A stretch of 58,365 bases of DNA, filler included, from Bipalium vagum (taxonomy: Eukaryota): the NCBI GenBank assembly GCA_037834085.1. It is 3 parts of 3 records of this genome, joined end to end, with 100 filler letters (N's around TTAATTAATTAA, not from the genome) between each part and the next. Parts side by side here need not be neighbours in the genome. Positions count along the whole stretch, not along the records: positions 39,235 to 58,365 come from JBBMKC010009748.1; 2 more parts are not named here. One strand, written 5' to 3'. The notes under the pieces were generated by a model that was not told the DNA's origin, did not search any database, and saw only the letters and a list, made by a program, of their open reading frames with translations. Made by a program: the position numbers and the translations under genes. How positions within the stretch are numbered: position 1 is the first letter of the stretch; the number at the start of each line of letters is the position of its first letter. Positions 17,640-58,365 of the stretch are shown here, one piece after another.

Positions 17640-18075
17640 AATTAAGTTATAAAATTAAAAATTATCTTTAATTTCTAAACTTTAAAATCTTTGGATTGAT
17701 AGAGAAACTGAAATTTATAATAAAACATTTGAGGATTTTTATGATGATAATGAAATAGAAATTTATTCAAATGATAATGAATAAGAAGGTTTAATAAAAC
17801 TTTGAAGAATATTATGTTTCAAAACTTTAAGGAACAAAGATTGAAAATGGTTGCATTTTTTACCCAAATTAATTATATTTTTTATAATAATTAAATTCAT
17901 AGATCAATTGATATCTCCTAATAAAGATCGTCAAAATTGGTTATTATTTTCAAAGTTAATAAGTATTTTGGCTTACTTCCAAAACTCAGATGTTATTTTT
18001 TTCGAAGAAAATAGTCTACAAAATACGAAATATAAAATAAATTTGCTTATAATTTTTGAAAATAAGATGAGCTAA
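17640..18075 (+). mobile_element. Polinton/Maverick-type integrase remnant
   Basis: LWIDRETEIYNKTFEDFYDDNEIEIYS...FLPKL...IHRSI. Paralogous at DNA level to 56960-57290. Confidence 0.75.
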
Positions 18076-19923: not shown

Positions 19924-21112
19924 TATTATTTTGTTATTATTATTTTTTTTATATTTATTAAAAATCTTTTAGTTTATTTTAAAATATTAAAATTTAATTT
20001 ATTAATTTAATTTAATTTTTTTTTAATTTCCTTAGCTTAATATTGTATAATATATTATTATATTTTAAAATTAATTAGATAAATAAAACTTTTAATATTA
20101 GAAAAATAAAATGATAAATAAAAAAATAATATAAATAATATAATATTTATTTTGTTAGTAATATTAATATAATATTTAATTGATTTTAATTTTAATTTTA
20201 TAATTTTCTATTTTCATTAATTTAATTAATTTTAATACATCAAAAAATAATTTAATAATTTAATATTATATATTTTAGAATTATAATGATTTATTTTTAT
20301 TTTATCATATTTTAAAAGTTAAGCCACAAATAGAAATAATATTATATAAATAATATAAAATATGTCTCTTTCTCATTGCGAAATATTGCATATTTTTCAA
20401 TTAACGTATTTGCTTTTAATCGGCTTAGCACTGATAACACTTTCCAGTCCTCTCTGGACCCTACCCCTTGGGGTTGGGGCTGTAAGATCAAGACTGTCTC
20501 TAATCTCCTTTTGATCAAAGGGAAATTCCGTGTCACAGACTTCATCCCCAAATATGTTTCATAATGAAAATTTATAATGCAAAATAATAAATCGGAAAAA
20601 GTAATATTTCTGGACTTTTTCTTTCCAAAAAGTCTTACGAGTGAGAGGAAATCCAGCGAAAGGTGGACACGTTCGAAAGAAGATTTTTTTTACAATTTAA
20701 TTAACCTTCGAAAGCATTGGTCTCAGTGGATGATGAAGGGTAAAAATAATGTGACAGATGTCAGGTCTGGTAACCGAATACAAATTGTTGGTCTTTGCCA
20801 AGTGTTGGATATTTTCATATTATTTTTGCTTTTTACCGTTTCCTTGGTGAAAGACACTCCTTGGTTACGTCCTCCGAACCCATTAGGTGTGCTTTGTTAA
20901 CATCCGCCAGCTTATGATCCATAAATACCAGATTTTCAATAACTTGTTAAATATATCATCAAAAATCCGAAATATTCAAACAATTTGGTCAGATCATGGG
21001 AATCATAAATAAATAATTATAGAATTAATAATAAATAATAATAATAATAATAAATAATAATAATAATAAATAATAAAAAATAAATAAAATTAATACTTTA
21101 CAATTATATATA

Positions 21113-39417: not shown

Positions 39418-40380
39418 TGGTCACTATTATTATTAATGATATTTCTCCATCTTTCTGCCAAATTCGTAAAACTCCTGGAGTTTAATGTACCGTATGATAG
39501 ACTCATCGTCACTGCATGTCTTCCCGTTCAAGGAATTCTGCAGCTACCTAAACAAATGATAATCGGTAATAGCCAAGTCTGGTGAAGAATCAATAATCAA
39601 TAAATCCACTCAAGAATCAATAATTTTTTTCGGGTGATCAAAGATTACTGTGTATTGCTGGTAGACAACACCCTTCAGAATTTACAATCTTGGACGCTTT
39701 TCGTGGATTCATTGCTCACCTTTATCAATTGAGAGCAGTACATATTCGAATTAATCGTTTGCCAAGATGATATCAGCTCTTAATAAATTACATCTTTAAA
39801 CTCACCCCAGACAAAAAGCATGATCTTCTTGGTGTACATTCCTGCCTTTACTGATGATTTTGGTGGCTCACCAGGACGATCCCACGATCTTTTGTGGTGC
39901 CCATTGTCATATACAACCCAATTTTCATCACTGGTAACTAATTGCCTCAAGAAAGGATGGTTTTCTTTACCGTTTCAACAATGAATAACATATTGATAAT
40001 CGTGCCAAAATATTAGCCTCCGTTAATTTATGCAGTACCTATCCATTGAGTTGTGAAACGAATCCCAGATTACGTAGGATATTTTTATCGTTGAATGCGA
40101 TGTCTCTAGTATTGTTGCGATTTCCCGAATTTTGTTCGATGGATTACTTTCGATATTGGACTTAATAGCATTGGGATCAATATGAGATGGGCCTGCGGAA
40201 TGGGATGCATCGTTCATATCGAATTTTCCACAACAGAATTTGACGAATCATTTTTGGCATACTTGTATAGTATCAACTCAATATACCTTACATATTTTCC
40301 TATGTGTATCTGAGGATCGCTTGCTTTTTAAAATTAAAATAATATACAATATATAATACTTAACTTTTTCAAAAAAAACA
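39418..40380 (-). mobile_element. Degenerate mariner remnant
   Basis: LRQLVTSDENWVVYDN..KRSW, SPDLAITDYHLF and LAERWR motifs. Confidence 0.8.
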
Positions 40381-40999
40381 TGACGAAAATGCAGTTTTTA
40401 TCTTGCATAATGATATTTTAATTATTGCTTAAGATAATTATATTATTTAAACAAAAACGAAATGATTAATTTATGAAAAAATGATTTACAAATTCCAATA
40501 TTAAAAAGCACTGGAACTTCAGTTGTTCAGAATTATTTTGGAGGTCTTACATCACTCGCCATATTTACCACATATCGCAACTTCTGATTTCCATTTGTTA
40601 AATTCTATTCAATCAGCACTTGGAAGCATTCGTCTCGGATGAAGGCCTTCAAAATTGGATTGATATTTGGATTGGTTGAAAAGAACTATAGTTTTACTTT
40701 CGCTGAATCCTTTCATATCCTGAAAGATTGCTTTTAATATAAAAAATTTTAATAAAATAAAACTTAAGTCTTTGATTTTTAATAAAAACCGGAGTCATAT
40801 TTATAGACCTACAATAATATAAGAAGTTGTTTTCCATAGATGAAAAAATAATTTTTGTCATTCTATCCAAAAGAAATGGCATTCGTTATTATTTTCTGTT
40901 ATTTATAAATTTTATTTATATTATATTTTCTTGAAGTTTTATAACTACAATTTCCGAGAACATACTGAGGTCGACCTATGTTTCATATTTTGTCCAATA

Positions 41000-41800
41000 T
41001 TTTAATTTAAGGCCAGAGATCATTACATAAAACTACTGTGGAAAAATGTTTTTATAGGCAGGGATGATAGACTAATTAAATAACAAAGATTGTGGACATC
41101 TGTAGTAAAAATAAAAATTGTAGAAGTTAATTAAGACATATCCGATCACAAAAATTTCAGTATTTGTTATGGATAAATGTAAGCTATCAAACAGTTCCGG
41201 AAAAATGTAAAACAACTTGGGAAGCTGAAAAAGATTGAAAATTGGTATTGGATGATTTATATTAGAAACAAAATCTGAGTTTTAAGGTGTGCCACCGTTT
41301 TTATTTCTGAACATAAATGGAATTTTTAATCAATTTCAAAGTGCAATAAAATATTCATTAAATATAATTTTCACAAGCCCTAAGCAAAATGATTAATTAG
41401 ATCATTATCAAGGTTTGCAACATTTTTCAAAAGTATAACTTTACCACAAGAAAATTAAGATTAAAATTTTGTGGTATGCTTGAAGCATCATTTATGAGTT
41501 TCTGACTTGGAAAACCAATTACAAAAAATAAGTATTGAAAAGAAATCCATCATTCGCCTGAAAATAAAAAATATCGTCTTCTATACTTTTCATAAATAAC
41601 AATAAGAAAGTTGTATGCTCTCGGGTACCAAGATATACATTATTATCAATTTTCGCTAGACTTCATATCTACAGAATTTCCAATGTTTCTGAAAATAAAA
41701 TTCTGCTAGATGATGGGTTGCTAAAAGTGTTTGTCAACATGACAACAAAATTCTTTTAATCAAATTAATTCCCGTTGTGAACTATTTGACTATTGCTTTG
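41000..41800 (+). mobile_element. Highly degraded mariner-like remnant
   Basis: Only scattered mariner-like peptides; limits approximate. Confidence 0.35.
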
Positions 41801-42106
41801 CTCATTGCTTAGATTTATAAATATTATTTGGTATTCAGTAATTACATCAGTCTCACAAATAAAAACAAAAGTAGCACTGGGGTTTAAAACCCTCTTTAAA
41901 AATATTAATTTAAGAATATTTTTAATCTATTTTACTGTGATTCTAAATCGGCAGAAGAAATCATTCTTTAGAATTAAAAAATAAAATAGAATTTTTATAA
42001 TTTTAGTTTTTGTATCCAGAAATTTCAGACATGTAGGAGTTAAAAATAAAATTATTGACATTAAATTTTTCATTTTTATCATATTTCAAATACTTATTGT
42101 AAAAAC

Positions 42107-45100
42107 CTGATCTTTTTTCAAAATGCCACTACGGTTTTTGTCCATCTCCTTCAGGACCTTTCTAAAAGATTCTAAATCAAAAGGCTCTCGAGACTTGATA
42201 AGTTGAATTTCAGCTCTTTGAAGCAAATCTAAATCCGTGATCTCTGATTGAACTCTTAGTCCAGTATCAATTTCTTCAGCATCAATTGCTTCAATACTAT
42301 CACGTCCTACATTATTTATGTGATTCTTTAAATCAAATAATCGACATATACCACTCAAGGAATGTGCTCTTTCAATGTAACTAATTAATTTTTCATGATG
42401 AACTTTTCCTCCTTTGATCTGACATTTATGAATCAAAAAGTCAAGAAGACGATTTGGTAGATCAAAATGAAGTTCAGAAAAAGTAACTAAGCAGTCGGTT
42501 ATACTGACAAATCCATCTTCAGAACTTGAATGAATTTTTCTCAGTGCCATCCTTAAACTTCTTAACTTTTGACGACTTACACCTCTTAAAACAGGAATAA
42601 GCTGATGATGTAATGAATATTCTTCATTTTTCTTGCTCTCTTCATCATTTTGAGAATTTTCTTCACCAAACACCTCTTTTTAAAAAAGTCTATTAATTAT
42701 ATTACACAATTATATAGTTATTATTTGGATTTTTTTTAAAATTACGACGATAAATTTTATAATTGATAAAGTTTTAATTTAATTTAACTAATAATTTCAT
42801 CGAAATTGAAATAAAACATATTTGAATCTCAAGAATTTTCCAAAGAGAATTTCTGATCAGATTACGGTCTATGAGTCTCTCTTAAAATTGATTTCATTTT
42901 CACAAAAAATTCATTTAATGATATCAGCCATCATTTTTCGATATTTTATAAGAAATCAGATAATTATAAAATGAATATGTCAATTTCAAAGATGCATTCA
43001 TTGATGGACACAAATCAAGGTTTTTTGTATAAACGATGCGATGTATAAACGATAAAGATTTGGAAAATGTATGGATATTTCGATTTTTCAATTGGCTGAG
43101 AAAAATATCAATATAAGAGAAGATATTTTAAGAATTGAAGCTATGTTTGCAACAGATCTTAAAATTTTAAATATCATATGGTTGGATTGCTAGGTTTAAA
43201 AAAGACACGATTTAAAATCAAAAGTTTAATTGAATGAAACTGGAAATATAAATTTTAAGAAGATTAATTTCCAAAAAAATTTAATAATATATATTCTAAA
43301 ATTATGCCCTGCACAATTTTTATAATATGGATTATTCCGGGTTTGTGCACAGAGTCTCCATCAAACAGAAATGTAAAGGGGTATGAAAATAGCGAAATCA
43401 GAATCACTAATGTATAGGGCCACAAAAAAATTGACTTAAAAATGATGTAAATTGACCTATAACATACAAAATTGACTTTATTGTCCTTAACCATACAAAA
43501 GTTGACTTTAAAATAGCAAAAAATATAATCAAAATAATAACAATTTATTTCAAGAAAATCATTATCTTTTGTTCAAATACATAACAAAATATTGGTTAAT
43601 ATTTTCTTTTTTGAATTGTCTATCATTACATAAAAGCTTTTTAGGAGTCGAAAAACTTCTTTCGACAGCTGACATTTTTGAAGCATATCATAAAGTTCCG
43701 GGGAAATCTCATTTCGATGTATTTCCATAATTACTTTTATTTCGTTTTTCTGTAACATCTTTTCAATATACTTTTCAGCTCACAAAGGTCTTCTTCAAAG
43801 GAAATAGATTTTAAAATATTGAAGATTGTTTTAATTAAAATAAAATAGTTTTCGCATTGGGTAATTAATGACACTAACTGATAGTAATGAAAAAAGTCGC
43901 TGCCCTTGTTTATTTTTAACGCATGTAGATTTAATTGACGCAATTAAGTTATCCATGAAAAAGACATGGATATAAAATATGCCATGATTCACTGCACATA
44001 TCATATATGGCTCGGCATCTGTGAGAAGTAAGCAAAAATTTTCTCGACTACATCCTAGAAATGGAATAGTATCATTTATAATATGAACAATACCAGTAGA
44101 TTTAATGAATGAATCAAGAATAAGATATTTACATAAATAAGAGACGCCTAGATTTTCAAGAATAACCTTGAGAATATTAAAAAATTTATAATTCAAAACT
44201 TCTGATTTATCCATAATTTTAAAAATCTGCTTGTTTTGTACATAATGCTTTCACTGGATTTCGTCATTGTAAATAGCTGATAAACGTGTTTCATTGGTAG
44301 AAAGATGATCTAAAGACTAAAAATGCTCGAAGAGATTGATTTCGCAATTTCCACAATGGAATATCAGCAGCTAGGAATGCTTTTGTTAGATTTATAGTAA
44401 AATCCTCACTGTTCTTTGGCAAAAATTGCTATTTGAAAAGTTTCTTTGAACTTGTTTGGCTATTATTTTGAAGAAATTTTAAATGTTTAATTGTTGCTCG
44501 ATGTTTATCAACAAAATTTTTTTATGAAACTTGATCTGTATTGAAACACATGAATCATTATAGATTTTGCAATTTTCGTATTTTTAAATATTTAATTATT
44601 ATTAAAATATTGCTTTATTATTAAAACAATTTTAATTTTATTGCCTTTATTGACTTTTTTGTGGCCTTACTGTATTTTGCTGCAATGCTGATGGTAATGA
44701 CAAAAGAAAACTAATGGTCATAGGAAAATAGCAACCCAAATGTTTTAAAATTTGTCTGTTTCAAAGCGAATTCAAAAGTATGGATGATCAATAAAGATTT
44801 TAATGATTGAATTATAGAGTTTAATGAAGACATGAGTATCAAAAACATAAATATTGTTCTAATATTGGATAATGCTCCATGCCATAAAGAATGCCAATTA
44901 TCAAATGTCAAAATAATTTGCCAAAATATTCTAAAGGAATCCTACAGCCTCTTAATACTTGTGAAATCAAAGAATTTAAATGCTACTATAAAAAGTTATC
45001 TTAAGGAAATTGTTAGAATTTTCGTTGATATTTAATGATATCATAGAAAAATGTATAATTAGCAGATTCTATCTATATGATACAACAATCGTGGAATCAA

Positions 45101-46409
45101 ATTAGCTCGTCCACAATTCTAAATTGCTGGATTCATACAGGTTTAACCAGTCCCCATTCGACATTACCAGAGATTAAATTTTCTTTTGTCGAGGATATCC
45201 AATGTCTTAAAGATCAAATAAACATTTAAGGTCCATACACCACCGTAGATGAAAATATCTCTGCGTGGCAGGAACTACAAACGGAAGATATTGTTGACAT
45301 GATAACCACTCCTAATAATATATCTGGAAGTTCTTCCGATGAAGATAATATTACAAGTAGTTCCGAAAAAGCATTATCTTATCAAATTATATTTAAGAAG
45401 GATCCTACTTTTTTCAAGTTATCAAACGACTTATTTGTTGCCTGGAAAAAAATTTGATGAAAAAACTCTTGATCTTTCTACAGTATTATTATCTATCAGA
45501 AAGTATTATTTTAAATTCTCAACCACAGGTCAAGAAAACTTATATACTGGATTTCTGTAAATAAAATTTTTAATGGTGATGATTTCCCTTTATAATTTCA
45601 TTTTTAAAACAGATTTTTTATTTTGTACCCGTTCTAGTGTTGCATAATCAAGCTTACCCGGAATAAAGGAACCCCGTTATAAAAATTTATAAAATAAAAT
45701 TGAAAAAAAATTTATTGGAACTTGTATTAGACAAAATATATTCAAAAATTAATTAACGTTTAAGAAATAGAATTTTGTAAAATAATTATTGATTTTAGTA
45801 ATAATGTTATTTTTAATTAAAAATATGCATAATGAAAAAGGAAATGCATGAATATATAATTTTTCTGAAATTTACCTTCCTCTTTTGACTTGAAAGTTGA
45901 GGGACCAAATTTACTGAACGTTGCGATAGCCTGTGAATAAAATGATCTAACAATGGACCACAAAATCATAATTGAATAATTATTTTGAAAAAGATTAATA
46001 AAATAAATACATTAAAAGTATTAATTCTATAAATATTTTTCAATAATATAAATTTACTTTCACTTTCACGGACCCTCTTTTGGAATTATTTTCAGCAGGT
46101 TTCTTTTTTAATGTTTGGTTACCAGATTTAGGTAATGCTGGTGACCTTGTGGGTTTTGGTGATTTCGCTTTTGATTTATCCTGAAGAATTTTCTGAGAAG
46201 AATTAGGTTTTTTTGCCGAAACTTTAGAAACAGGGGTTTCTTTAGGAGCCACTTTCGTATTTATTGCAGACGACATTAAATTTTCAGGTTTACTTTTGGT
46301 ACAATCAATTACTAACTGAATTTTATTTAATCCGCTCATTTACAATGCAGTTGATAAAGGACAAACTTACCACAGCCAAACGGGTAGTATCTTCCAACAA
46401 TTGCTGCAT
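42107..46409 (-). CDS. Uncharacterised protein with degenerate EF-hand-like repeats (possibly C1orf87-like), 3'-incomplete
   Basis: In-phase GT-AG exons 46371-46409, 46058-46315, 45876-45930 and 42107-42675. Contains a Lys/Pro/Ser-rich region and EF-like loops SSEDGFVSITD and MDKNRSGILKKDQ. Ends at donor CAG|GT with no downstream exon found before the linker. Confidence 0.7.
42880..45680 (+). mobile_element. Tigger/pogo element remnant, interrupted by a nested element
   Basis: GWIARFKKRH, RIT-[insertion]-FCCNADGNDKRKLMVIGK, LILDNAPCH, LQPL and SWNQISSSTILNCW. Confidence 0.8.
43415..44669 (-). mobile_element. hAT-like (DUF659/CGGBP-related) element nested in the Tigger
   Basis: TIRs TAGGGCCACAAAAAA / TTTTTTGTGGCCTTA with subterminal TTGAC repeats; motifs AFLAADIPLWKLRN and ENFCLLLTDAEPYM. 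Confidence 0.75.
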
Positions 46410-47969
46410 TATAACAAAGATAATTGCTAAATAATTCAAATGAACTCACCTTTAAGGGTTAAAATGATTTATATAACTTTGATAATATTATTGTCATTGG
46501 TTTCCTGAGAACATTTTATTAGAAGATAATATTGTAATTATGATTTATACAACTTATTTTTCTCTTTCGTTATTAATTTATCAAAACGAATCTTAGTTGT
46601 CAGGAAATCAGTGTTCCTAACCAATGGAAAACCACAACGAAACAATGAATCTCTGAAAAGAATGACATAAGAAAACTTTCAGACTGCCACATTCAATGGA
46701 TATGAAACAAAAGAAAAATTATCAATATCGTTAAATATGTTAAAACAATGAGATTATTAATATGACATCAATATTATTGTCAATATTATATATTACTTTT
46801 AATTATTATATTGTTAATAATCTCTATTAAATGAAAGTCCTTTTCCGATATTTCAAATCGAGGGAAAAATAAAATTTTAAATTTAAAGTTTTATTTTAAA
46901 ATGAAAAATTTTTTAAAACAAAATAAAAAAGTAAATTATACAAAAAAAATTAAAAATAATTTTAATTTTTACATATTTGTTAGGTTAGCCAAGAACACAT
47001 TCCTTTAACCCTTTAAATTATCTTTTGAAGACCTTAAATGGTATATAATAATTATAATATTAATAAATTAATTATAAAGACCTCAAAAAAGTCAGAAACA
47101 TGCTAATAATAATAATACTACAAATAATAATTAAATAGCAATTATAAAAGTCAAAAAATTAATTATAATACTGAATAATAATACTAATTTTTTATCAATA
47201 AATGATCTAATCTCGACAATGGCAAATGTCGAATACCAAGATTAGACCAGGGTCCACAATTAGAAACCGATTTAGGTTTTATTACCTTTGAAAATTTTGA
47301 TCCAACTTTTACTGACTATTCGATTTGATTATTATTGATTGTCCTGATTTTCAGTATTGCTTTATTAATTTTGAATACTTGAGATATTTTACATTGGAGA
47401 CTGTTATTGTGCGATGACCTATGTGTATCTGCGTTAATAGAATAAAGTTTTATTGTAGTCGTTTTGATTCAATTATTTTCGAAGACGTTTTTGACAAAAG
47501 TGACAGGGTCGGTAAATTTATGAGCTAAGTGCTACGATAAGGTTTCATAGTAATATAAAGCGTAACTTATTTATTTAAAAAAAGTATTAGTGCTGTGTAT
47601 CAGTAAATTTATAATCAAAACGACTGTCAACTATCCGTATATTTTAAAAAATAATTATTTCATAATCTTATTTAATTCTATTTAATATTATGATAATATT
47701 TTTTAAAGATATTTTATTATGATTTTAATTTTTACTTTACATTTACAAAACCATTTTCTTTTGTTGAAAATCTTATTTTATTTTATCTTAAAATCTTTTT
47801 AGAACAATTTATTAATTTAAAACAATTTTAATTTTAAAACAATCTCTTAAAAACAATTTTTATTTCCTTAGTTACAATAGATGAAACCTAACACAATGTA
47901 GCTTTTGTAACGTTTCAAGATATAGCATATATTTATAGGACATTATTACATCACCAATTTTACCGTTGA

Positions 47970-49141
47970 TTAAGTGCACCGGAAAGTAATAACATAGTAA
48001 TGACAAAATTCAAACAAAAAAATTTTTAATAAATATTTATTTTTGATAGACATAGTTATTCTCTTTTCAATAATCTTCTGCCATCTGCAATGTAAATTTT
48101 CAAACCCGATTCGATAAAAATCAATTGGCTTTAGAACGAAATATTTTGATAGGGCATTTGAATATCTTCCTATTTTTTTCCCACAGAAAATGTTGAGCGA
48201 ATATGGTCATTGAGGCAAAACTTCAAACCAAAATTTATTAATTTTGTCCAGGTTCGTAATGAACAGTGTGATTTTGTATTCTCGTTTTGCAGAATAACCC
48301 CTTTTCTGTTGACAATCGCTGGGCGTTTTTTTTTTAGTAAAGATTAAATTTATTATCCAATTGTTCGCACCAAAGGTCTGCATTTACAATGTTTCCTCAT
48401 TCCAGCAGTTCCGCAAATACCCCACCGAATGCAAAAAGGCGCCCTTTTGGGATGTAATCTGGTTTACATAGTGAAAATTCATTCGAGGAAACCCACGACC
48501 TTTTTCGTTTAGGATTATCATATAAGATTCATTTTTCGTCTGCAGCGGTCAAGCGATCAAAAAACTTTCCTGCACTGTATCGTTGAAGCAATAATTGACT
48601 TGTATTCATTCGATTAACTTTATTGCTTTCGGAACGTTTATGAGGTACCCACAAATTTTCTTACTTTGCGAATCTGTTGCAAAATTTATTGGATGGTTGG
48701 CCAACGTTGATTAAGTGTGTTTGATATTTACTCGATACTCTTACACTTATTTGTCTCTACATTCGTCCTTAAGATTTCATTATACAAAGCTGTTGGTCTT
48801 CCTCATCGATACGAGTCCGAAACATCTAAAGAACCGGATCTAAACTTTGAAAATCACTTTTAGTATTTGCGAAAGTCAAATGATTTTGGATAGGCATTGC
48901 AAATATTTTTCGTTGCAACTGTTGCGCTACTGATTTTAATAAATTCAAACATCATACACTGCTGGATATGCACCTCTTCTGGCAAAGTAAAACTACAAAT
49001 AAAGTTTAAGATTCAATATTTTACAATGAAATAAGTTACCTTAACTTTAAAATGTATTTGGATTGATTTTAAAATTAGCAATCAATTGATAACTATTAAT
49101 GAAGTTTTTAAAAAAACGGCATTACTTTCCGGTCCACCTAA
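47970..49141 (-). mobile_element. Mariner element, degenerate, with both TIRs
   Basis: TIRs TTAAGTGCACCGGAAAGTAAT / ATTACTTTCCGGTCCACCTAA-TA; motifs WVPH and ILYDNPKRKRSW. Confidence 0.85.
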
Positions 49142-49594
49142 TATATTACATATATATATTACATTTTACATTTTCAGTTTTAAAATCATTGTCGATATTG
49201 AAAACGTTTATCAATTTAAATGAAATTTATATTCCGAATTGTTTATCAATAAATTCAACGTGTTCGAAGAGATTGAGCGGGTGGGGGAGGCTCGGTATAT
49301 TCATCGAAATCATAACACGTAAAATTTTGTCATACTTAAAAACAGTGTGAATTATTTATATTAGTTCGTTCGAAATAAATAAACTCCAATTCAATTTTTA
49401 TAAAAATTGATTCATTACAAATAACAAAGACTGTCAAAAAATGGAAGTAAAACCAAAACGATTATCAATAAAAACGAAAACAAAAAAACTACTTGACCTG
49501 TCCATATAATATACCTGACGCGTAATGAAATGAATTAAAAAAGTAATTGAGACTACAATAAACACTGAACGGTAGTGGTGAAATCAATAAAAAA

Positions 49595-49800
49595 TGTCGG
49601 CCATTTAACCTTTACCTGAAAAGCCGGTCGTGATGGCGAGTTGATCCAGGTCACAGAATTTAGTACAGCAATACCCAAGTCAACGTCGCCCGCCCGCTAT
49701 CACATTAGACAGCCACAGTTGCAAACCACTTCGTAGAGCCGGTGTGCGTGCTTGATTATGATTGGTTACCTTTCATCAGTTGGTGTGTCGTTATTAACCT
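49595..49800. promoter_or_regulatory. GC-rich island upstream of the nuclear receptor (probable promoter region)
   Basis: GC-box-like CGCCCGCCCGC, ATTGG at 49761 and Inr-like TCAGTT at 49776; lies between two divergent genes. Confidence 0.5.
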
Positions 49801-49871
49801 TTATTATTTTCTAGCAAAGGTTGATAGCGCATCAATCGATTTTTAATAAATTTTTTTTCAATTTAAGTCAA

Positions 49872-52800
49872 ATGAATGATACTTGTCACAGTAAACATTA
49901 TTTGCTATTATCAAATGAATCGATTGTCTCCAATTTAGAATCAATGCATTCGAATGAGTTTGAAAAATCCAATGCTTCATTCACCAGTGATGGGGACTCG
50001 TTGATTTCCAATGGTATTTTTTCTCCGAACATCAAAACCAACATAGTAGATCTTGCTCACGAAGAATCATTGTCAATTGATCAACAGGAAAAGGATATAT
50101 GTGTAGTTTGTGGTGATCATTCTACAGGTTACATTTTTCATTTTTGTTTTTCTTAAATCCATATCTGAAACTACAAACAAGATTTCATAATTTTTTTTGT
50201 CAAGGTCGTCATTATGGAGTGCTGTCTTGTGAGGGTTGTAAAGGATTTTTTAAAAGATCCATAAGAAATGGAAATCAATATCGCTGTAGAGGAAGTAATG
50301 TATGCATTATCACGAAGGCTTTCCGAAATCGTTGTCAGTATTGTCGACTTCAGAAATGCTTAAGTGTAATAGAATTAGTTTTTTGTGTCGGTTATTGTAT
50401 ATTTTTAAAGGAAGGCATGAGAAGTGATTGGGTTCAAAATGAGCGGAAAATGAATGCTCATTTGAAATCGAATTCCTCTAATATTTTCGAAAAACAGGCT
50501 ACAATTTATTTGCCTATTAGACCGAAACATACGGAATTGAGACAAAACGATCTGGGTAAAACAGAGTTGTCAGTGGAGTAAGGGTTATTTATTATCACTT
50601 TCACTTATTTTCAGTGACAAAATCGTTATTGAAAAATACCAAATTTAATGGTAAAATAATATAATTAATGAAAAACATAATTTGTTGATCTAAAAAATAT
50701 TATCTGGGTAGATGTGGAAGAAAAAATATTTTTATTTATAGCATCATCCAAGTTTTGTTTCTTTAAAAAGCATACTAAGAATGAAATGAGTAAAAATGAG
50801 CTGGTTATTATTAGTTTGATAAAGAAGAAATGTCGGTTTTTACTGGTTGACTTTAAAACTAAGTAACTCATTTGATTATAAAGGTTGTTAATTAAAACAA
50901 AATATTTTACTATCTATACACTATGAAACAAGTTTGGTAATTCCAACAAAATAAAATTGTCGAGTCGACAAACTTCATAAAGGTTGCTTCGACAGCACCT
51001 TGGATTTGAAGCATTTCTGAAGTAGAAAGTTAATGAGGTGCTTGAAGATATATTAATCCATTTGTAATACAAGGTCTGGGGAATTAAATGGATGAGGCAA
51101 AGTTCAATAGCCACATTCGTTCACTGTTTGCAGGGTCAATTTTGAGATGTGTAAAGGTATTGGGTTTTTCATAAGATCAAAGGTGATCACATTTGCTGAA
51201 TATTTTTAGGCATTTCCTAGATTTCCCAAATATATTTCTGTTATATATATTAATCTCATTTAGAGAAACTAATTGACTAAATAAAAGTAAAAAAATCAAA
51301 AAAATAATTTTACTTAAAAATGACCAAATCTTGACATATAGTCCAGAATGTTTGTTATTTTTAAAATCTAATTTATGGTAATGATCATTTGTCCAGTCAA
51401 ACACTTTATATGCATATTTCAATTTGTTTTCTTCAACTGAAATCATAAACAGATTTTAAAAGATTTATTCTTACTATTTCAACAGCGATGGGTTTCTGCC
51501 TCTTAAATTAGTATTTCGTACAGTTATTTATACTAATGAACAAAATATTTTAGATAACAAGTTTTTGATCTTTTATTATGTCTTAATTTTTTCTTATAAA
51601 TAACAATGTAAAATACTTTCTATTTAAAAAAGGTCATATATATATTAATTAAATATCTGTACACACATAACCGAAAAATAGTCACAAGATTCATTAGAAT
51701 TAGAAAAGGAAAGTTTCAGTTCACATCCAGAACACCTTGAATTTGTTTATAGCAAAATGGTGCAATAAACAAACTCGAGAAACAGTATGGCTTCATTTGA
51801 ACTCATATTTAACCGATTTTCTGTAGAGACTCCAGGTCAGAAACATAATTATCTATCCACGTGACTTGAATTCTAAATTTTTTGGACTCAGTCATGACAT
51901 TTATAATTGTGTATCAATAAATTAATATTTTAATCACTTCCTAAATTAAGAAAGAACAAAAAATAAAATAAGTAAATAATGTTATGGATAAATGAAAAAA
52001 TTATATTTCTAGACTTTTTATCCATTTTAAATTAACACTAAAATAGGTTTAAATTTAAGTGATTTGTTAAACAGCAGTGTAACTGAATCAGAACATGTCA
52101 ATTCTTTCATCAATGATCAATGTATGGATAATGAAGAAGTATCAGTAATCAAGAAAGAACTAAATGACCCAGTAATATCTCCAAGTGATCATCATATATC
52201 ATATAAAAATGAAGCGAAATCTGAGATGTTGGATTCTTTAAATTTTATTTTTCAAATGGACCCACTTTCTCTGCCTACAAGATTTACTATTCAGTTTATT
52301 AATGAGACATCTTATAGAATTCTCTTTTTAATTATGGAATGGGTTGGTCACCTCAAATTTTTTGAAGATCTCAAGTAATAATCTTGAACTGTTGAGCGAC
52401 TTTATTTTTTGTTGTTCCAGTTTTCAATCCCAATATAGTCTAATTAGTCATAGTTGGTTAGAATTGTTTATAGTTGCAATGTGTCAGGTTGCTTCCAGTA
52501 TCCACATGGATTCCATGCTAAAGTCGATTTCCAGTCATATCTCACAATCATCATCACAACATAGTGAGAATATGCTTTGGTTTATTTTTAGGAATCTTAT
52601 AGTTGTGTAGGTCAGATAAAGGAAATAAAAAGGGAAATAGACAAGATGATGATGATAAAAAAGAATATTGTGGAAAGTAATTTTACAAATGAGAACCTTG
52701 CTTATATTCGTTGCTTGCTTCTTTTAAATCCAAGTAATTTTGACCTCTCATTTCAAAATATTTTTGATATTTTATGAATTATTTCTCGTTATGAACTTTT

Positions 52801-53246
52801 TTTTCAGTAAATTTTCCTTCATTACTTGACCAAGAGAAAGCTCAAGCTCTTTATAATCGTCTGAAGATTGAAATTTGTGAAAATATTTCTAAAGAAAACA
52901 ATTATGGTGGAGTTTTAAAAATGTTTAATATATTTCAATGCATTGGTGAAATTGAAACTCTGAACAAACCAGTGATTGAAAATATTTTTTTCGCAGGTGA
53001 TTCAACAAAGATTTAAAACAGAATTTTATTATGGATTTGATAGGTCTTGTGAGGTCCGTACAAATAGTTCAACTTTTACCTCTTATAATGAGAACTAGTC
53101 AATTGGTGGGATTCAATTCAGTAGCGCAAAATTCTTATTCTAAATCAAAAGATCCAGAAAACTTAGTATTGCCAAAGACTGACTATTTGAAATCTTTGGA
53201 GCCACTAAGACATATCTTGTCAACATTAAATGAACCAGCTAAATAG
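49872..53246 (+). CDS. Nuclear receptor, TR2/TR4 (NR2C)/Hr78-like, 9 coding exons (~527 aa)
   Basis: Exons 49872-50127, 50205-50365, 50411-50555, 50615-50650, 52047-52374, 52421-52563, 52611-52733, 52808-52996 and 53044-53246 (GT-AG, 1584 nt). C4 zinc fingers [46 protein letters not shown] motifs [33 protein letters not shown] and [10 protein letters not shown]. Confidence 0.9.
50700..51500 (-). mobile_element. Possible P-element-like transposase remnant in the NR intron
   Basis: Weak motifs [13 protein letters not shown] and LLSFKVNQ; degraded. Confidence 0.3.
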
Positions 53247-54499
53247 TTCATGTTCGAATGTGGTAAAAATCTGCTTTGTCTGTGAATAGATAAAGGTTTA
53301 TTCTTCATGAAACAATATTTAAAATTTAATTATTCACCTGCTTTTTGATCACTATTTTTGCATTTATACCTTCATATATGTGATATGATTATTTACAATA
53401 TACAATACTGTTACTTATAAATACTCATAGTTGAGTACTTTGATATCGAATAATTTATTCAGAAATAATTTTCCAAAAAGTCATATTTTTTTATAAATAC
53501 AAAAAGACCGGAATAAGAAAATCATTTTATTATGACAAACAGATAATATGACTGAACGATTGCAATTATACAGGTTGGGTCTAAAAATATGTCAAGGTAC
53601 TGTAGAATAAGAGTAATGAACAGAATTAAATATTGTAAGAACCTTACGACCTAAAATGATCAACCTTGTATGATCCCATTTCATGTTGGTTGTCAGAGGA
53701 ACTGGTCTACTAAGTAAATTCGAACCAATGTGAGAAACAAATCATCACCGCATGATCAATACAATACAGATGATCAAAAGAGGAATTGTTGTAATAAATA
53801 AATTTTTGTAAATGATGCAATATGCTTAATATAATATTTGACATTAAATTTTATTGTGATCTTGTCCTTTTTGCAGATCTTGCCAATACGTTTTAGGTTG
53901 ATTTTTTAATTTCTAGAAATTAATTAAATGTGTGGGCACAGTTTATTTGGTAATAAAAGAAACAATCTAAATAACATTTTTATCGACTGCCAATCAGAAT
54001 TATATAAGAAATTTATGATTTTTATTAGATTTTAAATTTTGCTTTAATTATTAAATCCTTTTATCAATTACATCTTTCCATGTTTCTTTAAAATCTATTA
54101 TTAGGTTGTAATATAATTTTTCCTCATTTTGATTTTATTTGTAGAGACAATAAAATATTTTTTTACGAATAATAATGAAAAATCAATAATTTAATTTTTC
54201 ATTAAATCATTATTTTTTAGGACTTTCTTAAAATATAATTTATCAATCTGTCTCTAAGACTCCGATATAGATCCGTCTAGATTGTCTTATATTCTTGTGT
54301 AGTCATTTTGAAATAATAATTCAAAGTTGAAACAATAATTATAATGTATTTTATTCAATCCGATTAACCAAACAAACTTTTCAAACTTGGACCTCGCTTT
54401 TTATTAAAATTAAATTATCTACTTTTTTAAAATTAACCAACATTTTTTTAAAAATTAAAAAAAACATTATAATTTTTAAAAACTTTAAATTAAAAACAT

Positions 54500-55620
54500 T
54501 TAATATTTGTTAATCTAGGCACGAGGTCCTTATATAAAAAATTCAAACAAACTAATTCTTCGAATCACTCCTCATAGTCTTCAAATTATTTTTTCACTAT
54601 TGATAAATTTTAATAAATTACTAGTGAAATGTGAAACCTCCTTCCTGCAATTATTTTACTTTTTTTACTATCTTAGCTTAGTTAGAAGTAACCTTAGCTG
54701 AGCCCTGCCTTCTCTTCACTATTCTTTCCTATTCACTGCTAATTCGAATCCCTACTTGAATCACAATAACCACTATAAACCTTAGTCGTTCACAAATAAA
54801 TCAAAACAATCACTATAAACTTTATCTTATATTTGCGCAATGAATCAAAGTAATCAAAATGAAACTTTAATTATCACAATGATAAAACGCAAAAAGTTTG
54901 AAATCACAACGAAGATATAAGTTATCAATGAATAATAATGAATCTGTGACTAAATATCAATATAATTATTAATTAAGAAAACCATTAATTAAAGAAATAT
55001 CAATTTTTAAATGAAACAAGAGAAATTATCGCCGTTAAATCTCAATTAGTCCCCGGGTCGCCCGCTAGGCTCTTTACAACCACATATGGATTCCAAATCT
55101 CGATGAGACTCATTTAAAGATCTTCTCACCTTGTCATTTAGAAAGAAATATAATAATAATGAGCTACTCTGAATTTTTCAAATTATCGACAAAATTGCTT
55201 TCTGGTCGTAACTTTGACGAACTCAACAGACACTATTTAATACTATTCGGTCCTCCGAATCCCCTAAATTTAATAACTTAAGCTGAACAACTTAAATCTT
55301 TTATTAGCATAAAAAAACAACATATATAACAATGTTATTAACAAAAATGGTCAAAATGTTGAATTTGCTTTTCAATTCCACTTCTCTCAACTCGATCCTC
55401 AAAATTTCTTTTTGGCTCTGGCCCGTTCCAATTCCATCAGCTCTTTTTTGTTGACTTCCCATCTTTCTCTTCCTATCATTCACTAATGAATTTCTTAACC
55501 TATGTTTCGCCATTTCTATTTCCTTCGGACCAGCGTTCCTGACTTCCTTCTGAGTTACTTTCTTTGTTTTCCTTTGGATCACTATCTTTTTTTCTCCCTG
55601 TTGTGAGCTTGTGATTTCAT
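54500..55620 (-). mobile_element. Possible LTR-retrotransposon remnant
   Basis: NDKVRR and NPYVVVK resemble the integrase C-terminal GPY/F region; charged ORF 55304-55582; weak. Confidence 0.3.
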
Positions 55621-56040
55621 GGTTTTTTGTGTAACGCGTTAAATTAAAAAGGCATTATTTGAAAATTGGTCCAAGTTTATATAAAATGTTTAGTAAAACA
55701 TCCATATTATTCCATTTTCCAGATTAACAGGGATTGACTGTATTGTAAATTTTGTAAAAAAAACACATCTCTAAAAATAATAAAAGTCATCATGAAAATA
55801 CTATAAACATGAAAAAATAAACAACTGAAAAACAACGAGAACGAAGAAAAAGTAATGACATCAACGAACAAAAAACGAGAACTAAAAAACAACTATTAAA
55901 AAGTACAACAAAGGAGTAACAAAAAAGTTTTAAATATTCAAGAAATTCATGAAAAATATCAAAGTTTTTTTTAAAAAAAAGGTGGTGATTTAAAATCAGC
56001 AATTATAAATAATACATATTTTAATAAATTTACAACATGA

Positions 56041-57440
56041 AAATATCTAGGAGAATTACATTAAAAATCCTTAAACCCTTTTAATAAAAACAAATACTGT
56101 GTACTAATTTATGGGTCAAATGGAGTTGAGTGGACTTTTCATCGATGTGTGCTAGTGTTTTTAAAGTTAAAATTTTCAGTTAAAAATGGAATTCAGAAAA
56201 TGTAAAAAAATATATGAAAGCTTAATATTTTATATAAAACTTTAAAAATGCAATATCTTCAAATTGCGGGAAACTCCTAAAATCTTCTAAGGACTGATCC
56301 CGATAGTAAAAACAGAGAAGAACAAATATTTATAAAAGATTAGAAGCTATAATGAAATAGTTGAAAATTTTAAAGACAATCAAGATTTATCAATTCTTCA
56401 AATTCCAGAACCTGGTGCCATTCCAATCAACAGAATGATCAAGCAACAGTGAAATATGATGTAAAATATATCTACAGATTTACAAGATTGTCATGTTGCT
56501 GATGTTGAAAGGATATATGAAATGAACAATATTCAAAATCCAACCCTAAGAGAAAATCTTAAAAGAGCTTTAGTAAAATTAATCGTGCAGAGCAAGATAG
56601 CTTTCGGGTTAGGAGGATTATATCTTTCGATAGCTGTAGGGTTAGGATTAGAAAGATCAAGTAAAAATATTGCAAATGAAAAAATATTTGAAAACTCTAA
56701 AGTTATTCCTCCTGAAAAAGTAAACAATTAGTAAATGAACTTCATAAATAAATTAGAAAACCCAAACAGTATCTTAAAGTTAAAGTTTTTGGTCAGCAGA
56801 TTTAACATTTGTCCCAGGAGAAAAATATTGTAAAATACTTCTAACAGTTATTGATTTATATAGTCGTTTTGCTATTGTTGTTCCTTTAAAAAATAAAACT
56901 TGAAATTCTATAACAGATGCTTTTGATGAAATATTTGGAAACTAACAAAGACAACTTTAAAAACTTTGGGTTAATATAGGTACTGAATTTTACAAAAACA
57001 CTGAGGATTTTTGTGATGATAATGAAATAGAGGATGAAGGGAAAATTTTTTTAAAATTTACACAACAAGGAAACAAGAAATGGATTATCAAATTTAATTA
57101 ATTTGTATGACAATAAAATTCATAGATCAATTTGTATATCTCCTAACGAAGCTACTAAGAATTCTGAAAAATTAAAAAAAACTGAAAAACATGAAAATGA
57201 AACTACTTTAAAATTAAATTCTATATCAAAAGTCAAACAAAGTTCCAAATTTGAGATCATGTAAGAATTTTCAAATATAAAAATAAATTTGAGGAATGTT
57301 ATACAATAAAATGGACAGAGTAAATATTTTTATAAATGAAATTTATTATACAAACCCAATGGTTTATGGTATTATAGATTTAAATGGTGAAAAAATATTA
57401 AGGAGGTTATATGAAAATAAGTTGCAACAATCTTATTTAA
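56041..57440 (+). mobile_element. Endogenous Polinton/Maverick (adintovirus-like) fragment: PLA2-like gene plus retroviral-type integrase, pseudogenised
   Basis: GELH*KS...KYC; PGAIPIN..DQA.VKYDVKY..DLQDCHVAD..IYEMNNIQNPTLRE..RALVK..K..FGLG; then ELHK*IRK, WSADL, KYLLTVIDLYSRFAIVVPLKNKT, LWVNIGTEFY and WTE..YGIIDLNGEKI..YENKLQ. Confidence 0.85.
56101..56381 (+). ncRNA. 5' half of a group I intron (IC1/viral-like), truncated
   Basis: GCTAGT (56151), 14-bp P2.1 stem 56155-56168/56238-56251, core P element AAATTGCGGGAAA (56261-56273), P5 stems and GACAATC (start of Q). It interrupts the PLA2-like reading frame just after YC. Confidence 0.65.
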
Positions 57441-58365
57441 GAAGTAAGACCGAGTTTTGAAAATGATTTTTATAAATTAATTTGGAAATACTCATTTATA
57501 TCATCTAATATATTTAACTCATAATATTATTGAGAATATTTAGACAGCTCTTATTTTTATTAAGTGAATAACATTAAATATTTATTAACATTTTTTTTCA
57601 AGATTATGGTTTAAAATTTAACAAGCATTTATCTTTTTATGGCTTTTAATATTGGAATATTTAAATATTAAATAATTAAAATTTATTTGAAATTTATTAT
57701 ATTTTAAAACATTAATAAATTTCAAAGTATAATTAAATAATAAAGATTAAATTAAAGAATTAATTAAAACGAAAACGCTGAACGATTGCATAGATAAGCA
57801 TGATTTAAACCGTTTACCTATAAAAATTGTGGAGACTCCCACCTTCAGGCCAACCAAATCAACCGAACCCTTCAAAAACGTCAATCCAACCAAAGCAATC
57901 AAAGCCTTCGAAGCAATAACATTATAGCATTGATTTTAAACATTTTTAGTGATCATTTATTGTTTCATTTTATGTATAAAAAACAAAATATAATTCTGTT
58001 TAATTTTATTTATTTATTTGTTTCATGTAAAAGTTAAAACCCGGAATTTGATTTTAATAATTCTCCTTCTCGTCTGTTTAATTAATATAAAATATAAAAT
58101 AAAATATAAAATTATAGTAAAAATAATATATAAAATATAAAAAATTAATCATTTTGATGATTAATTTATAAAATATTGGGAAAAAATTGTTTAGTATTAG
58201 TATAACATAAAGTAACTATAAATAATTTTTCAATAAAAATTTTAATCAATGTTACTATAAATAAATTTATGGTAAAAAATTTTTAAGCTGAATTCTAAAA
58301 ATAGTAACATAAAGTTACTATAATTAAAAATACAGAAAAATAAAATAATATAAATACTGAAGTGT

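Follow-up and report, generated by a model that had tools for sequence, protein, structure and literature searches.

Genes at the locus and boundaries of the exons

The window (the whole stretch of DNA analysed here, 58,365 nucleotides) contains on its plus strand a decayed gene for a phospholipase A2-like protein, PLA2X, which is interrupted by about 205 nucleotides of intron-like sequence (~56117–56321). Directly behind it lies a decayed gene for a retroviral-type integrase (56734–57433, plus strand), recognised by tblastx matches of up to 73 bits with PLA2X loci from metagenomes and showing a weak match to Pfam rve (E 0.035, a 23-residue piece). The same gene order is found in the related metagenome loci. 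A PLA2X gene and a retroviral-type integrase are features of Polintons and adintoviruses and, with the two adjoining in the order known from the related loci, the proposal of an endogenous Polinton/adintovirus-like element was upheld. No further element genes (protein-primed polymerase, capsid, ATPase, protease) were returned by tblastx with the 39 short related loci. Upstream of PLA2X the minus strand carries a lysine-rich open frame of 116 codons (55304–55654), for which neither Pfam nor Atlas gave a match. GGNCC sites number six in 53201–57480 versus 1.8 expected, all of them before 55700, where the DNA may lie outside the element; there are none in 55700–57480, a stretch too short for a depletion to show.

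There is no N gap after 39234, and hence none between the element and a multi-exon NR2C-like nuclear receptor gene at 49815–52610 (plus strand; best PDB match NR2C2 (TR4)), the PF00105 domain of which was detected at 50117–50578 with an E value of 3.9e-22. Nuclear receptors are animal genes, and the gap-free stretch shared with this one supports the residence of the element in an animal nuclear genome. The base composition is even along the window. On the minus strand, 42086–46339 holds exons of a host gene that matches EF-hand / DUF5580 weakly in Pfam. Another remnant from the integrase family of the element was found among host DNA at 17678–17921, 80–83% alike to 56953–57146; neither PLA2X nor an intron signal was present near it. 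Two stems on the plus strand, at 226–308 and 20734–20835 (33 and 21 pairs), are possibly small inverted-repeat elements. Mavericks are described as expanded in Dugesia (10.64898/2025.12.11.693146).

The 5' exon of PLA2X (55975–56116, plus strand) was delimited by its translations, by weak tblastx pieces at 55975–56076 and by a match to P0006, an uninterrupted close PLA2X relative used as exon reference. Between its GELH and KTN..FMG stretches the reading frame shifts and is broken by stop codons, and the last codon of the exon is the Gly of the HxFTG motif. The frame that matches the homologue reads LIKTNTVY*FMG at 56081–56116 and aligns with LNKTNAIHNFTG of P0006, a match equalled in 1 of 300 shuffles; it replaces the NKNKYC frame of the earlier note. 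The YCGP motif expected there occurs in none of the 39 related PLA2X loci, the motif being of the HxFTGPG type, as in most of these loci.

The 3' exon, likewise with frameshifts and stops, extends over 56322–56731 (plus strand) according to protein matches to related loci. Among 335 stretches of eight residues, TNIYKRLE at 56322 agrees best with the motif found behind GPG in 32 of the 39 loci (13.6 vs 5.1), and the distance from it to the next motif is 98 nucleotides here and 99 in P0006. The gene thus resumes at 56322, some 60 nucleotides before the earlier estimate (near 56382). Further downstream an unbroken piece of 88 residues (56465–56728) found 14 relatives. Two of them, P0001 and P0013, match PF08398, the parvovirus-type PLA2 domain, strongly (E 1.7e-9 and 8.9e-11, respectively). 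PLA2X exon matches lie on both sides of the insert, and its place inside a PLA2-like gene is supported.

An alternative pairwise alignment with viral introns sets 56331–56344 against the 3' strand of intron P5a/P5. The exon reading of these letters is preferred on account of the protein match, the motif spacing and a contig depth rising from 56325. Since the 3' exon resumes at 56322, the words TTAGAAG, ATTTTA and GACAATC are exon letters. All motifs named earlier do exist, among them GCTAGT at 56151, CTTCTAA at 56284, TTAGAAG at 56340 and GACAATC at 56375; the nested stems TAAAAT/ATTTTA and CTTCTAA/TTAGAAG nevertheless had to be given up as intron parts, and GACAATC as an intron element, this last word lying within PLA2X coding sequence. 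Pairs of TAAAAT and ATTTTA number 393 in the window. The insert shrinks from the ~280 nucleotides first supposed to the size given above.

Structure of the intron remnant

The intron follows the HxFTG motif, behind its Gly codon, and precedes the next exon, with the 5' splice site probably after U56116, as judged by homology of the exon end. Folding of 56105–56160 yielded no convincing P1 with a U-G pair, the region being decayed; the letters between the exon motif and GCTAGT (56117–56150, plus strand) are likely what is left of the intron 5' end (P1/P2 region).

GCTAGT at 56151 opens the next part (56151–56251, plus strand), in which a P2.1 stem surrounds a loop of 69 nucleotides, a layout shared with viral introns in the alignment. 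The arms of P2.1 (56155–56168 and 56238–56251) form 14 pairs, two of them G-U. This stem had been singled out in the earlier note, and it is present, but it is not above chance by itself, since the plus strand of the window holds 22 stems of at least 14 pairs within 120 nucleotides. The letters AATATCTTC-AAATTGCGGGAAA follow at 56252–56273. Matches of the nhmmer profile, the covariance model and the 18-mer described below assign 56249–56278 (plus strand) to J2/3, the P3 5' strand and the P element, which comprises J3/4 and the 5' strands of P4 and P5.

The last part (56283–56321, plus strand) consists of the P5a arms, a remnant of P5c and an A-rich bulge, as indicated by the bulge profile, the gaps in the viral alignment and a depth of a single copy. 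TCTTCT at 56283–56288 pairs with AGAAGA at 56316–56321, and the A-rich bulge is at 56305–56312. P5b and part of P5c are deleted, leaving gaps of ~28 and ~13 nucleotides relative to the three best viral introns. At 56321 the intron sequence ends abruptly and everything from the P5 3' strand onward is missing. Searches after 53000 detected no Q element (P4 3' strand, P6) within 3 mismatches and no R or S element (P7 guanosine site, P8, P9) on the plus strand with 2–3 mismatches allowed. The single deletion held responsible in the earlier note does not suffice, as at least three losses are needed.

P2.1, the P3 5' strand, the P element and P5a with its bulge are thus in the correct order and on the correct strand. 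P5a with an A-rich bulge (P5abc type) and P2.1 are features of the IC type, and the two are regarded as marks of subgroup IC1. The remnant resembles an IC-type group I intron and, this copy being without the core, is classed as a remnant.

Rfam RF00028 produced no match in 54000–58365 at E values up to 10. Its gathering score (50 bits) was not reached; the copy is without the 3' half. Over the window, Rfam gave two chance snoRNA matches only. The earlier note had regarded the lack of a covariance-model signal as speaking against a group I intron, and this copy indeed gave none with RF00028, whereas models made from nearer viral introns match clearly.

These viral introns came from IMG/VR, at least 128 stretches of which match the 18-mer at 56261–56278. 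In 16 of 20 such loci tested, RF00028 scored above the gathering score across the 18-mer match, and the remaining four have a Q-like element downstream of it. To avoid circularity, viral introns were gathered by the Q element, which is absent from the window. Among the 120 distinct introns obtained, 24 contain the exact 18-mer and 55 have a recognisable P element within 230 nucleotides. An nhmmer profile of 54 of these introns, selected in part on P in that source introns had to have a recognisable P within 230 nucleotides, gave a sole match in the window, 56237–56280, at 26.5 bits (E 3.2e-8), compared with a best score of 1.2 bits on 10 shuffled windows. A covariance model of 28 of the 54, subject to the same selection on P, matched 56221–56307 at 28.9 bits (E 1.3e-5), the next best score in 40000–58365 being 9.4. 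In 35 of the 54 introns, CTAGT precedes the P element by no more than 75 nucleotides.

A further profile was restricted to P5c and the A-rich bulge (48 of the 54 introns) and is an independent test, as it contains no P-element letters. It ranked 56297–56314 first of 116,694 positions in the window, 36 nucleotides downstream of the P element and on the same strand. The P3/P4 segment 56237–56280 and the A-rich bulge 56297–56314 are accordingly both far above chance, and the identification of a group I intron remnant with an IC-like 5' half stood up to the analysis, through the profile matches and the order of the elements on the plus strand. The fold of the insert, taken as 56101–56385, was no better than those of 100 shuffles (z −0.7).

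Copies of the element and its intron

Copy data were taken from one public sequencing run, from which the window itself possibly derives. With 2,897 contigs matching 55700–57500, the element forms a large and old family. There are 127 contigs on 56095–56375, and the conserved parts of the intron are common to 30–41 of them (40–41 at 56143–56149, 30 at 56254), the 40–41 contigs differing from the copy in the window at three places in 56143–56149. The summed depth amounts to ~2,200 on the conserved intron parts versus 17–25 for single contigs, where tens of copies are the safe reading, contig depth not being equal to copy number. It falls to 300–460 in the P2.1 loop and to 19–29, the level of a single copy, at 56295–56324. 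Because of this low depth the deletions are those of the present copy and not of the whole family. Eleven contigs continue past the first deletion at 56288 with letters that by eye resemble the P5b hairpin of viral introns, and 17 have a longer P2.1 loop, so that copies with more of the intron, anticipated in the earlier note, do exist.

Intron-free copies of the element are probably also present in the genome. The summed depth of the 5' exon is ~10 times that of the intron. At 56089, 46 contigs depart from the sequence of the window, and in one deep contig 56085 and 56347 are connected through a run of unknown letters.

These data bear on whether the intron, though real, might be dead throughout the genome, having been truncated on entry or having lost its core in every copy, so that a half-intron is merely carried along. 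No catalytic core (P7/P8/P9) was seen in the other copies within the 30 letters visible past the points at which contigs depart, all genes of the copy in the window are decayed, and 80 of the 127 contigs are less than 90% alike. Against this, the joints at 56295–56324 have the depth of a single copy and hence are not shared, and the 11 contigs at 56288 continue differently. Moreover, conservation among the copies peaks on the structural elements and falls in the loop, as under selection for an RNA fold. We consider a family-wide loss improbable.

Less weight still, and very little in absolute terms, is given to a chimeric contig, or to an origin of the element or of the intron-bearing contigs from a contaminating or symbiotic protist or fungus. 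The published intron-bearing Polinton-like viruses are all from protists (PMC12220804), the nearest introns found are in giant-virus-type contigs, and the library and organism of the run are unrecorded. Such an origin is opposed by the gap-free connection to the nuclear receptor gene and the even base composition, by the second integrase remnant among host DNA, and by the many diverged single-copy contigs (depth 17–32), which are as expected for an old host repeat; PLA2X is, in addition, described as typical of animal adintoviruses (PMC8502044). Finally, an unrelated insertion or a spliceosomal intron with a chance likeness to group I in AT-rich DNA, for which the silence of RF00028, the unremarkable fold, the commonness of 14-pair stems and an acceptor-like word TTTTCAG at 56173–56179 could be quoted, is refuted for practical purposes by the nhmmer, covariance-model and bulge-profile matches, two separate profiles having their top-ranked matches 36 nucleotides apart in the right order and on the right strand, and by the conservation of exactly these parts in other copies.

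It is highly probable that 56117–56321 is what remains, as a broken 5' half, of a group I intron carried in PLA2X by a many-copy Polinton/adintovirus-like element of an animal genome, the catalytic core being lost here and intact copies being predicted as likely self-splicing.

The P2.1 loop contains the start of a reading frame, MEFRKCKK (8 residues, 56186–56209, plus strand by translation). Seventeen contigs leave at 56208–56209 and carry further letters with a median of 209–210, and MEFRKCKK is likely the stump of a longer intron-borne ORF. The longer loop insert is possibly a homing nuclease gene, by analogy with viral introns: a long ORF occupies the same loop at 2 of 133 viral P elements (L037 and L043), both GIY-YIG-like, and other viral intron ORFs start with a similar Cys-x2-Cys, one of which (L018:1584-2243) has a Vsr/DUF559-like nuclease domain. 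Four viral contigs (L006, L007, L011, L017) were seen to hold three to five group I introns within 3 kb.

A mechanism can be proposed in which the intron of the element family follows the Gly in the PLA2 motif and, in a working copy, would fold, bind guanosine and splice in two steps, restoring the PLA2X frame. Two-step splicing triggered by guanosine is described for other group I introns (PMC10964413). The loop-encoded nuclease, likely of the homing type, would copy the intron into intron-free copies of the element, and the intron may have originated from the pool carried by giant viruses and protist Polinton-like viruses. Once integrated, the copy in the window decayed: stops and frameshifts arose in both exons and the integrase, and P5b, part of P5c, the putative ORF of the loop and all from the P5 3' strand through the intron end were lost. 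The proposal in its full extent is a working mobile group I ribozyme in PLA2X of a bilaterian Polinton/adintovirus family, whose intact copies would self-splice in the nucleus and spread via the P2.1-loop nuclease, and one or more other animal genomes would have Polintons that share the same invasion. We put this forward tentatively, as a serious possibility and short of an expectation.

Comparison with known introns and elements

A group I intron in a protein gene of a virus-like element that has multiplied in animal chromosomes would mean that Polintons can bring such ribozymes into the nuclei of animals, and that a message of the polymerase II type tolerates them, which bears on the open question why animal nuclear genes are without group I introns. 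It would also mark gene flow to or from animal Polintons, with giant viruses or viruses of protists as the other party. As a genome that combines copies bearing the intron, others probably free of it and decayed ones, the present one could serve as a test bed for the cycle of homing and loss; the copy in the window is dead and only points to the family.

Nuclear group I introns are described as confined to rRNA genes, those of animals being from non-bilaterian lineages and some sharks (PMC10964413). The passages covered of bioRxiv 10.1101/2023.08.22.554363, PMC11296320 and 10.64898/2026.10.13.758929 contain no more than brief mentions of group I introns. No report of such introns in animal Polintons was found in the literature covered.

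PLA2X is given as a virion gene of Alpha adintoviruses, and no intron in adintovirus PLA2X is reported in the passages covered of the same source (PMC8502044). The PLA2X of Alpha adintoviruses and Polintons (PF08398) agrees with the present gene in its PLA2-like domain of the GExH..HxFTGPG type and in the adjoining retroviral-type integrase (PMC8502044). The related PLA2X loci, in contrast to the intron-interrupted gene described here, are uninterrupted in the 32 of 39 with a readable motif, and such an intron was found in none of the 39 (20 of them also scanned with Rfam). One of the metagenome PLA2X loci (L281:337-382) matches the histone 3' stem-loop.

Group I introns (RF00028) are known from protist Polinton-like viruses, namely of Paulinella micropora (53), Desmodesmus armatus (2) and Rhodomonas lacustris cluster C3 (44) (PMC12220804). 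As at the present locus, they represent group I introns in a protein gene of a nuclear-integrated Polinton-type element. By description, those elements differ in having protist hosts and, in Rhodomonas, in the interrupted gene, which encodes ~50 residues and is found upstream of the capsid gene; the present intron belongs to an animal genome and interrupts PLA2X beside the integrase.

The IC1 introns of nuclear rDNA of the Tetrahymena type (PMC10964413) have in common with the remnant P2.1, the P5abc extension with an A-rich bulge and a AAAUUGCGGG P element. A close likeness in layout is shown by the introns of giant-virus-type and other contigs in IMG/VR (L001–L256, many named GVMAG). A PLA2X gene is present at none of these 256 loci, three scans of viral contigs for PLA2X relatives found none, and a longer, 32-letter pattern of the window has no match in viral contigs. 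Neither these loci nor the 39 related PLA2X loci thus offered an outside example of a group I intron paired with PLA2X. While the viral introns are complete, with R present in 43 and S in 36 of the 54, and lie outside PLA2X, and the window has the 5' half only, inside PLA2X, both show the succession GCTAGT–P2.1–GCAA, the exact 18-nucleotide P element and P5a with an A-rich bulge.
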